A stretch of 64,000 nucleotides of DNA from Escherichia coli (GTDB lineage Bacteria; Pseudomonadota; Gammaproteobacteria; Enterobacterales; Enterobacteriaceae). The stretch lies in NCBI RefSeq assembly GCF_003790525.1, contig NZ_CP033635.1. One strand, 5' to 3'. Below are positions 35,701 through 41,700 of this stretch, piece by piece. Positions within the stretch are counted from its first letter, which is position 1. Every line of letters starts with the position of its first letter. The position numbers were made by a program.

Positions 35701-38700
35701 TATGCTCCACAGTCCATGCTGGCTGAGGACGGCAGGCGTATCATTATGGCATGGATGAATATGTGGGATTCACCCGTGCCCACCCGCAGTGAAGCCTGGG
35801 CAGGATGTCTGACGCTGCCCAGAGAGGTTTTTGAGCGCGATGGCCGGCTGTGCCAGCGACCTGTGCGTGAAGTCGAATCTCTGCGCAAAAAATGCCAGCC
35901 ATTATCCCCTGTAAGGTTACAGGGTTTGCAATTACTGACCGAAAATGTACAGGCCGCAGAATTATTGGTGACGTGGCATACGGTTGACAGTCATGCGGAG
36001 CACTATGGCGTCCGCCTTGGAGACGGTCTGCGACTTTATGTGGATAATCAGGCCGGGCGACTGGTACTGTGGCGCTATTACCCTGAGGAAGGGTTGGATG
36101 GTTACCGCAGTGTTGAACTTCCTGATACAGAATATCTGACTCTTCGTATTTTCTTGGATCGTTCATCTGTTGAAGTGTTTGTTAACGATGGTGAGGCAAC
36201 CTTATCAAGTCGTATTTATCCGCAAGCGGACTCGAGACAATTATCGTTATATGCCGCTCATGGCGATGCGATATTAACTGATGGCACTTTATGGATGCTG
36301 ACCTGAGACATATCGATATCAGTATTTTTTCTGACATTATCTGTCATTACTTTGCCAGTACACATTAATTATCTTTGCTGTGTGCTTTTGGTAATGTGTT
36401 GCGATTATATATACCAGTCTGGTGAAGAATATGAATGGTATTTTGTGTTGATACAGAGAATATAAGAGTACCCACATTTGTTTTTATTTAAGGGGGTAAA
36501 ATGAATAAGTTACTTTTGGGTTTATCTCTTTTTTTATTACTGGAATACAATGCGTGTGCAGCAAAAACAGGGGGGCTAACGCTTGAACAAAGAATGGCAT
36601 TGCTGGAAGAACGCCTGGAAGCTGCAGAAAAAAGGGCGGAAAAAGCAGAAAGAATGTTAAAGAGTTTTGATATAGAACAACATTCTGAAATACGTCAAAT
36701 TAGTTCAGAGCAGAATAAAAAAGATGCTAACAGCTATGCAGTAGTTGAGTCAACAAAAGAAAAAACATCTTCTCCAGGTTTTCTGCTCTCTGGTTACAAT
36801 GATTTGAAGTTTTATGGTGATGTGGAGTTTAATATAGATGCTGCCAGTAAACCCGGTCAGTTAGTAATGATAAGTTCCGGGGCGAACAGTGAGTCAGTGA
36901 ATGAACGGTGGGACCTTAATGGCCGTATTCTATTAGGTTTTGACGGTACCCGTAAGCTTGATAATGGTTATTTCGCTGGATTTTCAGCACAACCACTGGC
37001 GGATATGCACGGTTCAGTGAATATTGATGATGCATTATTCTTTTTTGGAAAAGATGACGAGTGGAAAGTGAAAGTCGGTCGTTTTGAAGCTTACGATATG
37101 TTCCCTCTAAATCAGGATACTTTCATTGAGTATTCCGGTAATACAGCTAATGATATTTATGCTGATGGCCGTGGTTATATCTATATGATGAAAGAGGGAC
37201 GCGGTCGTTCTGACGCTGGTGGTAATTTCCTCATCAGTAAACAACTCGATAACTGGTATTTTGAGTTAAACACGTTACTTGAAGACGGAACATCTTTATA
37301 TAATAACGGTAATTATCATGGACGATATATGGAGCAGCAGAAAAATGTCGCTTATCTGCGCCCGGTAATTGCCTGGTCGCCAACGGAAGAATTCACAGTC
37401 TCCGCAGCGATGGAAGCGAACGTGGTAAAAAATGCTTATGGCTATACCGATAATAAGGGGAATTTTGTCGATCAGTCCAATCGTTCCGGTTATGGTATTA
37501 GCATGACATGGAACGGTCTGAAAACAGATCCGGAAAATGGCATCGTGGTTACTCTTAATACCGCCTATTTGGATGCCAGTAATGAGAAAGATTTCACTGC
37601 CAGTATTAATGCTCTGTGGAAACGTTTCGAACTGGGTTATATCTACGCACATAATAAGATTGATGAATTTAGTGGTGTCGTGTGTAATAATGGTTGCTGG
37701 ATTGATGGTGAAGGAATATACAACATTCACACCATTCATGCATCTTATCAGTTTGCTAATGTGATGGATATGGAGAACTTTAATATTTACCTCGGGGCTT
37801 ATTACTCAATTCTGGATAGTAACTGTAGATATAGTAATTGTGACATTACCGATGATCGTTACGGTGCCCGATTACGTTTCAAATACTTTTTTTGATGCAT
37901 AGTAACAAAGTATTGTTCCACACTTACATTAACGCGTTTTTCGGGCGCGTCATCAGCGATGCATACGAATGATCGCAGTCTGCCAATGGTCGATTTATCT
38001 TGGTTGCGCAGGGGCGAGCACCGGGCAGGTACCGGCGGCTGACTCTGAAGCTCTGAGTCGGGTAATTGCGTCAGGTCACGAAGGACTGACACGGGTATTG
38101 GTGGCAGGTGATGAAGTACTGAGTGTGGTAATTTCGGGGATGCAATGCAGGAGCTGAGTCAGGTTTGCACTGAGCTGAGGACCCGTAGCGAGCGGGTTCC
38201 TGCTATTTTTCGGTGTCAGGGGCGCAAGTCCCGACGTCGGGACTTGCCGGGAGATTGTCAGGTCATTGACCGGGTGTGAGCGGCTCGACGTAAGCGGTAG
38301 ATATGCCCAATTCCCCCCGATAAATTCATTACCAAACACATTATTCAATTTGTTTTTATTTTTCCGCTTTCAGTCATTATCGCTATCGCTTCGTCGGTAA
38401 TGACTCCAACTTATTGATAGTGTTTTATGTTCAGATAATGCCCGATGACTTTGTCATGCAGTGGATTTGCCCCTATATTTCCAGACACCTGTTATCACTT
38501 AACCCATTACTGGCCCGCTGCCGTAGATATTCCCGTGGCGAGCGATAACCCAGTGCACTATGCGGATGCCATTCGTTATAATGCTCGAACGCCTCTGCAA
38601 GGTTCTTTGCTGCCGTTAACCCGTCTGGTTTGGGCATGATACTGATGTAATCACGCTTTATCGTTTTCACGAAGCTCTCTGCTATGCCGTTACTCTCCGG

Positions 38701-41700
38701 ACTCCGCACCGCCGTGTTCTTCGGTTCAAGTCCCAACATCCGGGCGAACTGGCGCGATTTAGCCCCGACATAGCCCCACTGTTCGTCCATTTCCGCGCAG
38801 ACGATGACGTCACTGCCCGGCTGTATGCGCGAGGTTACCGACTGCGGCCTGAGTTTTTTAAGTGACGTAAAATCGTGTTGAGGCCAACGCCCATAATGCG
38901 GGCTGTTGCCCGGCATCCAACGCCATTCATGGCCATATCAATGATTTTCTGGTGCGTACCGAGTTGAGAAGCGGTGTAAGTGAACTGCAGTTGCCATGTT
39001 TTACGGCAGTGAGAGCAGAGATAGCGCTGATGTCCGGCGGTGCTTTTGCCGTTACGCACCACCCCGTCAGTAGCTGAACAGGAGGGACAGCTGATAGAAA
39101 CAGAAGCCACTGGAGCACCTCAAAAACACCATCATACACTAAATCAGTAAGTTGGCAGCATCACCCGCTTTGAAGTGAACAATAACCAGGGTCGTTTCGT
39201 ATTTCCGGATACCTGGTTTGGCCCATTACTGGGGGAGTTTGAAGAAGTGCTTGATGCATACGACACTGATGAAATCAGTGAGACGGGTTATATCAACAAA
39301 CTCAGACGCCTTGCTCAACAGGAGCCTGACTTTATTGATATACACGCTCATCTGGCATATGCATTTCTGGAGCAGAATGCCCCGCGTAAGGCACTGAACG
39401 CCGCTCTTAAAGGACTGGCGGCAGGTAATCGTCTCATCCCGGAAAGTTTCAGTGGTGAAATCATCTGGATGCATCCCGAAAACCGCCCTTATCTGCGCGC
39501 GCTTTATGCAACAATTCTCGCAAATGTGCACTTACAGCGTCATCAGGATGCGGTTATGCTCACTGATAAAATACTGGCATACAATCCTGAAGATAATCAG
39601 GGTGCCCGCTGGTTGTTGGGCTCAGAACTGTTACGAACAGGCGATCATAAGCAAGCCTTCAGTGTACTGAAAGAGCATGCTGATGAATTTTCACCTTACT
39701 GGTATGAACTTGGTCTTCTGCATTTTCTGAATGGGGAACATGTTAAGGCTGCCACAGCTTTTCGTCATGGCTTTGCTACAAACACTTACATCGCGGAAAT
39801 GCTGTGCGGAAATTTGCATCCATTTCCACTTGCTGTGCGGCATAACTTCTCCGGCTCTCTGGATACGGCAGAAGATTACTATGCAACATACTCACCATTA
39901 TGGGGACAATATCCGGAAGCATTGCTGTTTGTAAACTGGCTCTATAACCATTCCTCTGTGCTGCATGAACGAGCAGAAATCATTAAATGCGCCGAAATGC
40001 TGATGCAGGAAGATGATTTCGAAATATGCGAAAGCATTTTAAGACAGCAGAAGCTGTTGCGGGAAAGAATTGATGAGACACTTTCTGAGGAAATTGTACA
40101 GAAATGCAGAAATATTAACGGTGAATATGTCTGGCCCTGGATATTGCCGTTTTCAGCAGCAGGAATGAAACACTCAAGCATCCAGCATCAGTAGATATTG
40201 CATTAGTGTATCTTTCAAACAAGTAATAATTTATCCACCAGTAATAACACAGTCCCCCTTCCCCAGGTTATCGCCCTGGGGGCATTTTCTGAAAGTTTCC
40301 TTTAAAAAAGAATAGAGTCGTAAATTACTTTAACGAATTATTCCTGGAGTTCATTAAAGTTCTTTCGTAATACTTTGTAATCAAACACGTTATGACTGGC
40401 ATCAAAAACCACGGATTTCCCCTGCCAGCGGGTAATCACCTCCTCCGGCGTTTTCGGTTGAGCCGGTCTGGTTACGCCCATCCATGCATTAATCAGATAA
40501 TCATTATACGCAGTGGAAAAAACGCTGTTCACCGTCTGGCGATCGACATGCTCTCCCAGTGCCGGGCTGTACCAGATAAACATCGGAACATGATAAGCCT
40601 GCTGACTGGGTTTTATTCCACCATGAAAATAGGCATGTTCTTTTGTCGGGTCATACTCCAGACCGTGATCTGAAAAATACATGACGGATGCCTGACGCGT
40701 TTCCAGCATGGTGAAAACCTGTCCCAACAAACTGTCGGTATAATGAATGGAATTATCGTAACAGACTTCTTCTGTATCCAGCGGTTTAAACACGGCTTTA
40801 TCTCTGGGCCAGTTACTGCAAACCGGTTCATGGCTGCCCGTCAGATGCAGAACAATCAGTTTCCTGCTCCCCGGATTACTGTTCAGTGCTTCAGCCAGGT
40901 GTGGGAGCAGTAACTCATCATAGCCTCTGACATAAATTCTGTTTCTGGCCCGCATGGCGATACTGGCCACAGCCGTTCCGTTCTGTCGGAAAGCGGACTG
41001 CGCACTGAGCCACCAGGTATCGAACCCCGCCTGATTCGCCATGTTGATAATGTTATCAGGGTAATTACGGATATCATGATGCAGTACACTATCGGCAGAT
41101 AACGCCAGTGGAACAGCCAGCGCGGTGTAAGGTGCGCCACTGATTGCCTGAGTGAACAGTTTCAGTCGTGATTTCTGTTTCTGAAGCTCTGGTGTGGTAG
41201 GGCGCGAATACCCGTAAATGGACATGTTATCAGTCCTTGCAGATTCACCAATCACCAGAACAAATACGTCAGTGTTGTTATCCGTAATCACCAGATCGTA
41301 GTGAGGTATGGTATCAGCAATCGTCATTAATCTCTGATGCTCCTTTGCGGCCAGTGCAAAATAGTTCAGATTAAAGAAAGGGGTATATGTGGCAAACCGG
41401 GAAGCGACTATGTAAGGATCAACTTCATTTATTTGATACTGTTTCTTCAACGCAAACTGGAAGGAAGAATATAACGTTACTGTAATTAACAATAAAAATG
41501 TAATTACCGTGACCTTTTCCGATGGCAATGAGGACGTTTTATTTATTGCTGAACAGAAGAACAATAAAAAGAGGATAATAAATGCGATAACATAAACAAC
41601 ATACATCCTGAACATTCTTATTACTTCATCAGGATCTGTCTGAAGGATACTGATTGCAAAACCATCATTAAATGTTGTGCCAAATGTACACCATGAATAC

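Follow-up and report, generated by a model that had tools for sequence, protein, structure and literature searches.

What is the origin of an element that begins and ends as IS1, encodes part of another transposase in its middle and has no flanking target duplication? We analysed such an element in a 64,000-nt stretch of Escherichia coli DNA (contig NZ_CP033635.1 of assembly GCF_003790525.1), referred to below as the window. We conclude, with a probability of roughly 0.85, that the element is a dead nested IS remnant and that it sits at a recombination joint within a tRNA-Phe genomic island.

An IS1-IS2 chimera

The element occupies positions 38396-39165 of the window (770 bp), as determined by blastn against K-12 IS1A and IS2A and repeated on the whole window. 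The initial annotation had placed it at 38397-39165. The end was correct, but the true start is one base earlier, which agrees with that annotation's own flanking 9-mer, cgcttcgtc, at 38387-38395. Three pieces and a short overlap make up the element:

38396-38461, minus strand: IS1 right-end segment including IRR (blastn 100% over 66 nt, E 1.5e-31; exact pattern match)
38462-38754, minus strand: IS2 right-end fragment, IS2A nt 1331 to 1039 (blastn 97.6% over 293 nt, E 4.5e-146)
38749-38754: 6-bp microhomology CTGGCG at the second junction (overlapping blastn segments; sequence and protein alignments)
38749-39165, minus strand: IS1 left-hand segment, nt 1-417 in IRL-first numbering (blastn 99.8% to IS1A nt 352-768)

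Counted from the IRR end, the right-end segment is IS1A nt 1-66; in IRL-first numbering it is nt 768-703. The left-hand segment has one mismatch to IS1A (window 38962) and runs from IRL through the insA promoter, insA and the A6C site to codon 56 of insB. Both termini of the element are 100% identical to IS1A by blastn and pattern matching and insA is a 91-aa frame with one substitution, as expected from the earlier claim that both IS1 ends and insA are present. The middle of insB is indeed replaced by foreign DNA, although this measures 287-293 bp by blastn rather than about 280 bp. Its assignment to the IS3 family can be narrowed to IS2, and it is more than coding sequence: it begins precisely at the right terminus of IS2, TGGATTTGCCCC, and includes the terminal inverted repeat together with the last 93 codons of orfB/insD. 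It has three mismatches to the full IS2 found at the same junction in strain EF5-18-41. Among 5,426 complete E. coli genomes, the only IS1 copies that match the element beyond its two end segments are the same chimera, which bears out its description as a chimeric IS1.

The first internal junction, hereafter junction A, passes from IS1 (GATGACTTTGTCATGCAG) directly into the IS2 terminus. At the second junction, CTGGCG is common to IS2 (nt 1044-1039) and IS1 (nt 352-357 from the IRR end). On the coding strand this hexamer reads CGC CAG, and it specifies Arg-Gln in InsB and IS2 OrfB alike. Hence, the in-frame fusion of InsB to OrfB is an automatic result of shared codons at the microhomology.

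Coding capacity of the chimera

Three features bear on whether the element could still be active:

38473-38916, minus strand: hybrid ORF of 147 aa (ORF list, alignments, Pfam PF03400 DDE_Tnp_IS1 and PF13683 rve_3)
38835-39110, minus strand: insA, intact, 91 aa, P50L (translation against K-12 InsA; Pfam PF03811 Zn_ribbon_InsA and PF12759 HTH_Tnp_IS1 on record)
38853-38859, minus strand: A6C programmed -1 frameshift motif, AAAAAAC (sequence match)

The alignments resolve the in-frame IS3-family transposase C-terminus that had been noticed earlier into a single ORF, in which InsB residues 1-56 (100% identity) are joined to residues 209-301 of IS2 InsD/OrfB (one substitution). InsB residues 57-151 are missing, and the element has no complete 232-aa InsAB' frame with a DDE triad; the conceptual frameshift product is 212 aa long, compared with 232 aa for IS1A InsAB'. 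Inspection of motifs suggests that neither catalytic triad is complete in this product: the IS1 triad would lack its second Asp and its Glu, and the IS2 triad its first two Asp. Given this predicted loss of catalytic residues, the chimera is not expected to transpose itself. We found no sign of a working transposase encoded by the chimera or of its movement. The element may still supply InsA. A promoter-like site on the minus strand (39158-39131), identified by consensus matching, corresponds to the insA promoter.

Flanks from two different genes

The element is bordered by parts of two genes:

38345-38395, minus strand: last 16 codons and stop (51 nt) of a BRO-N domain gene (comparison with strain AHM21C2872I, locus L005)
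39166-40194, plus strand: TPR-protein gene without its first 5 codons and upstream region (native gene in S115 and CFT073)

The flanking 9-mers, cgcttcgtc and cgctttgaa, had been reported as not identical. They agree at 6 of 9 positions (chance of at least 6 of 9, ~0.01) and originate in different genes, so there is no ~9-bp target duplication. AHM21C2872I is identical to the window up to the IS1 boundary, after which a 263-aa BRO-N gene runs on; at this uninterrupted site, CGCTTCGTC is followed directly by GATAGTCTG. The left flank continues without a break into the BRO-N gene in ~37 of the 5,426 genomes, and the remainder of that gene is absent from the window. The left flank is also a truncated gene, which refines the initial annotation.

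On the right, the native TPR protein of S115 and CFT073 is 347 aa long (MNDRL, then RFEV), and homology starts at codon 6. The native site reads AGATTA followed by CGCTTTGAA, and in other islands ATGAACGACAGATTA and an integrase gene lie upstream of this flank. The proposal that the adjacent 339-aa gene had been truncated is upheld: the IS1 end adjoins codon 6 of the 347-aa gene, with five codons, the start and the upstream region lost. The longest ORF left has a GTG start at 39175 and encodes 339 aa. The RefSeq start, at 39160, lies inside IS1, which marks the gene as a 5ʹ-truncated copy. This copy is possibly silent; a promoter scan found no outward promoter toward it, a result of consensus matching only that is not itself evidence of silence.

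A query with the two flanks joined found no empty site with both in one piece among the matches listed for the 5,426 genomes. The flanks are non-contiguous in IS-free relatives, and each runs into different DNA. Together with the lack of an empty site, this strongly suggests that the pheU/pheV island was joined here by IS-mediated deletion or recombination, with IS1 at the joint, and it supports the original view of an IS-mediated rearrangement rather than a simple insertion.

The island and the distribution of the chimera

The island carries the following features upstream of the element:

28718-28793, plus strand: tRNA-Phe pheU (ARAGORN and Rfam)
28970-30154, plus strand: tyrosine-recombinase integrase (annotation; collinear with S115 and tcmA_3)
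30239-30279, minus strand: solo IS2 left-end inverted repeat, IS2A nt 41 to 1 (38/41 identical, E 4e-11)
30304-37895, plus strand: raffinose module rafR-rafA-rafB-rafD-rafY (RefSeq annotation of identical loci)

The tRNA and integrase (28718-30154) form the attachment end of the island, and the raffinose module sits between the integrase and the chimera. The module is annotated as a LacI-type regulator, alpha-galactosidase, MFS transporter, GH32 hydrolase and carbohydrate porin, and we infer the raf gene names from this set. Compared with S115, window positions 30187-39165 stand in place of 418 bp. The solo 41-nt repeat is the only other IS2 DNA that blastn detects in the window. It borders the raf module on the left, with 24 bp between it and the start of rafR, and is separated by 8.2 kb from the IS2 fragment of the chimera, whose orientation it shares. 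An Rfam search over 28-48 kb returned only the tRNA.

Junction A is present in 250 of the 5,426 genomes (~4.6%), all on chromosomes and always beside the raf operon, and in four metagenome contigs from different projects with the same raf-side flank. A 153-billion-gene collection contains the exact 147-aa product in 587 of its blocks. A query joining the raf flank to junction A matched 254 genomes, and every chimera locus that we read out, including 26 contigs from a protein look-up, has the same left junction. The IRL side is the TPR gene in 210 genomes and other DNA in ~44; examples are WYL/GTPase genes (L017) and an IS21 insertion (L019). Chimera loci are 99-100% identical overall, so conservation of the chimera is attributable to recency. 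In one genome per species (GTDB representatives), the exact junction had no match. The raf island is found at both pheU and pheV. In 14 genomes, junction A occurs at two places; these are probably both tRNA-Phe islands, since pheU and pheV are both used, and islands at both sites are the likely explanation. Plasmid matches to the raf-chimera junction were rejected as artefacts, in which complete copies of IS1 and IS2 at separate places had been joined. The raf plasmid p10B has IS1 elsewhere, between rafD and rafY.

Proposed origin

We propose that the chimera and its flanks arose in three steps, given here in a tentative order. First, IS2 would have transposed into a resident IS1 of the IS1A type, between nt 66 and 67 from the IRR end, as suggested by a junction that starts exactly at the IS2 right terminus. 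Second, an illegitimate deletion from IS2 nt 1038 into IS1 nt 351, suggested by the 6-bp microhomology, would have eliminated 285 bp of IS1 together with the remainder of IS2. If this event was local, the loss would have been ~1.33 kb (about 1334 bp), and the 770-bp product would retain both IS1 ends, the insA repressor gene and the A6C frameshift site, with a transposase frame of InsA-InsB'(1-56)-IS2 OrfB(209-301), 212 aa upon frameshifting. Third, IS1-mediated adjacent deletion or recombination between two IS1 copies would have formed the joint. For this step, comparison shows that the IS1 ends adjoin the BRO-N 3ʹ tail (downstream of raf) and TPR codon 6, two non-adjacent places. Neither process leaves a target duplication, which would account for its absence here; missing duplications normally stem from IS-IS recombination or adjacent deletion (PMC11708052). 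The scar is now inherited passively with the raf island at pheU or pheV. On its IRL side, the chimera continues to provide portable homology for further rearrangements, and the combination of one constant and one variable flank is a signature of IS-end rearrangements. Some observations count against this explanation. The length of the chimera (770 bp) is close to that of IS1 (768 bp), and the ~1334-bp deletion is within 3 bp of the length of IS2.

Candidate precursors were sought in the same 5,426 genomes, and the failure to find one counts against the explanation as well. A complete IS2 nested in IS1, with the predicted junction of the IS2 left end to IS1 nt 62, gave no full-length match. The TPR flank was never found beside an intact IS1, and neither the BRO-N nor the TPR site had received a simple IS1 insertion with its 9-bp duplication. 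A reconstructed query, with intact IS1 between the same two flanks, matched five genomes, which carry intact IS1 variants at the same left junction but lack the right flank. The three types of intact-IS1 variant that we read (DETEC-C31, DSM 103246 and EC06) have three different right flanks, and none has a matching duplication or a BRO-N continuation. Strains EF5-18-41 and PKF11, in which IS1 nt 1-66 is followed by full IS2, were considered as ancestors and rejected because the far IS2 end adjoins the cybC region, not IS1. This strain type is itself rearranged and is not the ancestor sought. A literature search found nothing specific on this raf/pheV island or on an IS1-IS2 chimera.

Alternative explanations

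Could one event have produced both the chimera and the mismatched flanks? A single deletion at CTGGCG, from within IS2 to within a second IS1, would do so: the left 359 bp (IS1 nt 1-66 plus the IS2 end) would derive from an IS2-hit IS1 at the BRO-N site, and the right 417 bp from a separate IS1 that had entered TPR codon 6 in the normal way. We regard this as a variant of our preferred explanation, not one different in kind, and consider it possible but doubtful. It is consistent with a microhomology junction that lies inside both elements, with the other DNA beyond IS2 in EF5-18-41 and PKF11, and with the constant presence of the raf left flank in genomes that have the chimera; moreover, no separate IS1-mediated rearrangement is needed. 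However, no genome has IS1 at TPR codon 6 with the integrase upstream, and a deletion of several kb between 6-bp repeats is less probable than a local one of 1.3 kb. The chimera also has other right flanks, so rearrangements at IS1 ends occur here anyway.

Has the chimera been retained for a function? It could be a mini-IS1 moved in trans, or a source of InsA or InsA-InsB'-OrfB' that damps IS1 or IS2. When abundant, IS1 transposase moves IRL/IRR-bounded DNA in trans, and InsA represses transposition (PMC12903888). Both properties are relevant to an element with intact IS1 ends, insA promoter, insA and frameshift site, and with an open, in-frame hybrid ORF. Nonetheless, the same left flank recurs in the 26 contigs, the four metagenome contigs and the 254 genomes, plasmids have no match and target duplications are absent from all copies, while the reading frame and the conservation are explained by the shared Arg-Gln codons and by recency, respectively. 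We therefore regard retention for function as very improbable. We attach equally little weight to two bolder proposals: that a kept chimera damps IS1 (conceivably IS2) in IS-rich raf lineages or is a mini-IS1, or that the near-IS2-sized, register-shifted deletion represents an undescribed aberrant excision of IS2.

The 6/9 identity of the flanks, a level with a chance probability of only ~0.01, would fit an ordinary IS1 insertion with a 9-bp duplication later eroded by point mutations, but this reading is refuted by the comparative loci: the uninterrupted BRO-N and native TPR sites are separate, the two genes are never adjacent among the matches listed for the 5,426 genomes, and three substitutions in 9 bp fit poorly with an IS1 that is 99.8-100% identical to IS1A. 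Mis-joining of reads from separate IS1 and IS2 copies, an artefact that the initial annotation had flagged and that such repeats classically cause, here with a total length that mimics IS1, is excluded by recurrence of the identical junction in 250 independently assembled chromosomes, four metagenome contigs and 587 collection blocks.

Comparison with known systems

The locus illustrates clearly how cargo modules in tRNA-Phe islands become joined through nested IS insertion, deletion at microhomology and rearrangement at IS ends, in this case the raffinose-utilisation operon and a TPR/phosphoethanolamine-transferase module. Junction A is a lineage marker for this raf island. Relevance beyond annotation is small.

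The chimera resembles K-12 IS1A, the structure of which, and the function of InsA, have been described (PMC12903888), in its near-equal length and in its inverted repeats, insA promoter region, insA, A6C site and first 56 insB codons (99.8-100% identical). It differs in that IS2 DNA stands in for nt 67-351 from the IRR end (InsB 57-151), in the foreign C-terminus of its shorter frameshift product, and in having neither a target duplication nor any observed transposition. Its likeness to IS2, an IS3-family element, is limited to the 293-bp right end, with the terminal repeat and the last 93 orfB codons (rve_3 region). Members of that family have two terminal repeats bounding orfA and orfB with a frameshift, whereas ~78% of IS2 is missing here (left repeat, orfA, frameshift region and most of orfB), and only nt 1039-1331 are present.

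Like engineered miniIS1 cassettes, which are bounded by IRL and IRR and served by InsAB' in trans (PMC12903888), the chimera retains both IS1 ends and lacks its own transposase. Unlike mobilised miniIS1, it showed no second-site copies: the 254 genomes and 26 + 4 contigs share the raf-side flank, and the several copies at unrelated sites, with target duplications, that characterise a mini-IS1 or MITE were not observed among them. Its classification as a mobilised non-autonomous element is therefore not supported.

The closest parallels are IS-mediated adjacent deletions and IS-IS joints, which have been catalogued for E. coli long-term evolution lines (PMC11708052). The chimera differs from these joints in being a degenerate IS whose precursor states, including a simple insertion with a duplication at one site, were not found in the 5,426 genomes. 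It shares with them a single IS, no target duplication, flanks that are non-contiguous in relatives, and one flank that is constant and another that varies among related genomes. The chimera is an ordinary IS scar of a kind already known.

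Structure and coding content of the chimera

The element that joins the raf module (rafR-rafA-rafB-rafD-rafY) to a TPR gene consists of an IS2 right end enclosed by two pieces of IS1, as established by reading the sequence and aligning it to the K-12 copies IS1A and IS2A.

Features of the chimera (window coordinates; IS1 positions counted from the IRR end)
38396-39165: chimera, IS1-IS2-IS1, 770 bp
38396-38461: IS1 right-end segment, IS1A nt 1-66, 100% identity
38462-38754: IS2 right-end segment, IS2A nt 1331 down to 1039, 97.6%, E 4.5e-146
38749-39165: second IS1 segment, IS1A nt 352-768, single mismatch, at 38962
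38835-39110, minus strand: insA, intact save P50L
38853-38859: AAAAAAC frameshift site, intact
38473-38916: hybrid ORF, 147 aa, InsB residues 1-56 in frame with IS2 OrfB/InsD residues 209-301

The IS2 right terminus, TGGATTTGCCCC, is the exact first base of the IS2 segment, and a 6-bp microhomology, CTGGCG, is shared by the IS2 and second IS1 segments. Missing are 285 bp of IS1 (nt 67-351), in agreement with the initial annotation, which had described a chimeric IS1 with both ends and insA present and the middle of insB replaced. It had placed the element at 38397-39165; the end stands, and the true start is one base earlier. At 770 bp, the chimera is 2 bp longer than IS1 (768 bp). Had IS1 once held a complete IS2 (1331 bp plus a 5-bp duplication), the implied deletion would be ~1334 bp, within 3 bp of the length of IS2 but offset by ~290 bp. 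Both length matches are probably coincidental.

The IS3-family C-terminus that had been noted in frame with insB is seen as the fusion of InsB to IS2 OrfB/InsD, and Pfam records for the hybrid ORF include both DDE_Tnp_IS1 and rve_3. The frame was kept because the microhomology is a codon pair, CGC-CAG (Arg-Gln), common to both genes; the in-frame fusion therefore requires no selective explanation. By motif inspection, the fusion has kept the first Asp from IS1 (CAEMDEQW) and, from IS2, the Glu region (NGIAESF); it lacks the MTDGW/ERHN region of IS1 and the DNG region of IS2. Judged by these motifs, the fusion protein would be catalytically dead. The conceptual −1 frameshift product is 212 aa, versus 232 aa for native InsAB'. 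Neither IS1 nor IS2 transposase can come from the chimera. A consensus promoter match for insA was found by promoter scan at 39158-39131, and expression of the InsA repressor may persist. RefSeq labels the pieces "IS1 family transposase" (InsA) and a pseudogenic "integrase core domain-containing protein".

The chimera retains everything required for movement in trans, and DNA bounded by IRL and IRR can be moved in trans by abundant InsAB' (PMC12903888). All readable copies share one context, with none on plasmids and none flanked by a duplication, and there is thus no evidence that the chimera moves.

Distribution and flanks

The chimera is real. A 110-nt probe across the IS1-IS2 junction matched 250 of 5,426 complete E. 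coli genomes at 264 places, all chromosomal, with two copies of the junction in 14 genomes, which probably have an island at pheU as well as at pheV. In a public gene collection, 587 blocks contain the identical 147-aa product, and an exact 39-mer across the junction recovered four metagenome contigs with the same surroundings; the same 39-mer had no match among one-genome-per-species representatives.

The raf-side junction is constant. In 254 genomes it adjoins the chimera, and every locus read (26 contigs from the protein look-up and the four metagenome contigs) has it. On the IRL side, 210 genomes have the TPR gene and ~44 have other DNA: at one locus (L017), WYL/GTPase genes lie directly at the IS1 end instead of TPR, and another (L019) has an IS21 insertion on this side. 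An intact IS1 occupies precisely the left junction in five genomes. In three of these (DETEC-C31, TUM18780 and TUM18530) it is an IS1B-like variant; the DETEC-C31 copy, which was examined closely, departs from IS1A at 7 positions, starting at nt 325. The variant in the remaining two has 43 differences and first diverges at nt 19. The right flanks of DETEC-C31, DSM 103246 and EC06 all differ from one another. In EF5-18-41 and PKF11 (L026/L027, 3985-7100), a 66-nt IS1 stub runs into a complete IS2, and the other end of that IS2 adjoins a cybC region; this is another rearranged version of the chimera site. Beyond IS2 lie a cytochrome b562 gene and an IS1 copy that is divergent (96% to IS1A). Together, these loci show that IS1 and IS2 homology has been used repeatedly here as a rearrangement point.

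Island setting and the missing target duplication

The window carries the island at pheU, where dcuA-cutA-dsbD-dicD is followed by tRNA-Phe (28718-28793) and a tyrosine-recombinase integrase. In S115, a 347-aa TPR gene lies 433 bp past the integrase, followed by a phosphoethanolamine transferase gene and more genes. Relative to S115, window 30187-39165, which holds rafR-rafA-rafB-rafD-rafY, a spacer and the chimera, stands in place of 418 bp (intergenic DNA plus 15 nt from the start of the TPR gene). The native gene opens with ATG AAC GAC AGA TTA / CGC TTT GAA GTG, and the IS1 end adjoins the codon-6 CGC. The adjacent gene is thus truncated, as had been suspected, with its start codon and upstream region gone; the RefSeq start, 39160, falls within IS1, and the longest ORF has GTG 39175 as its start. 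On the other side, AHM21C2872I, with the same integrase-raf layout at pheV, reads straight through the site of the IS1 into a BRO-N gene of 263 aa, of which the window keeps the final 16 codons and stop (38345-38395, minus strand). The uninterrupted BRO-N form occurs in ~37 genomes.

A joined-flank query of the 5,426 genomes found the chimera between both flanks in 210, and no empty site (a single-piece match) among the sampled matches. The proposal of IS-mediated rearrangement, not simple insertion, is thereby upheld, and the initial observation and its interpretation were essentially right. The flanking 9-mers are alike at 6 of 9 positions (p ~0.01); the flanks come from separate, non-contiguous sites, and this resemblance is therefore coincidence. 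The usual account of an absent duplication is IS-IS recombination or an adjacent deletion (PMC11708052).

Other features of the island

The same integrase-raf island is at pheU in the window and tcmA_3 (L032), and at pheV in H9Ecoli, W2-5 and AHM21C2872I (L008, L023, L024). Upstream of rafR, 24 bp from its start, is a solo inverted repeat of the IS2 left end, oriented as the IS2 fragment in the chimera:

30239-30279: IS2A nt 41 to 1, 38/41 identical, E 4e-11

The raf segment (30280-38461, 8.2 kb) is thus bracketed, in direct order, by an IS2 "end" and an IS2 "start", an arrangement resembling a decayed IS2 composite or cointegrate. Raf islands without the chimera have the solo repeat as well (L024). 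Early in the rafR coding sequence is a 32-bp perfect palindrome (TCAGCTTCCACCCGTG/CACGGGTGGAAGCTGA, 30385-30416), and adjacent near-identical palindromic 18-mers (ATATCCGAAACGTTTTGG and ATACCCGAAACGTTTCGG, 31333-31373) between rafR and rafA are presumably raf operators. Downstream of rafY is a non-coding stretch in which RefSeq places a 58-aa hypothetical protein. Its first 112-174 nt (~37946-38120) form a short conserved sequence, with 83-87% matches on O157:H7 chromosomes and on one plasmid. The RefSeq name "ATP--cob(I)alamin adenosyltransferase" looks doubtful for a 523-aa product (~42664-44235) that has no Pfam match on record. The stretch ~46726-56871 encodes an outer-membrane protein, an integrase fragment (~47687-47871), an AAA ATPase and a type I restriction-modification system (S, M and DEAD/DEAH helicase subunits). 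Because of the integrase fragment, the island appears to be a fusion of at least two islands; homology to the AHM21C2872I island restarts at 47507.

Origin of the chimera and comparison with known elements

How might the chimera have arisen? We propose, as the likeliest history, that an IS1 was resident at the 3ʹ end of the BRO-N gene and that IS2 transposed into it, since the junction is precise at the IS2 end. A microhomology deletion would then have taken out 285 bp of IS1 along with most of IS2, and IS1-mediated adjacent deletion or IS1 x IS1 recombination would have joined the IRL end to TPR codon 6. An alternative explanation, about half as likely, is a single larger deletion from IS2 to a second IS1 at the TPR site, which would yield the same product. 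None of the predicted intermediates, including the junction CCAGTCTA followed by TGCAGCTCCACC (IS2 left end, then IS1 nt 62 onward), is present in any of the 5,426 genomes; the order of the steps is therefore inferred rather than shown.

Nested, decayed IS elements and IS copies without a duplication are textbook, so the chimera holds nothing new. Its closest known relatives are IS1A, IS2 and classical IS-mediated deletion joints. It differs from an autonomous IS1 in lacking a complete insB' and a duplication, from IS2 in carrying only one IS2 end, and from a mobilised mini-IS1 in being found at a single locus. The chimera qualifies as an IS scar marking a recombination joint.
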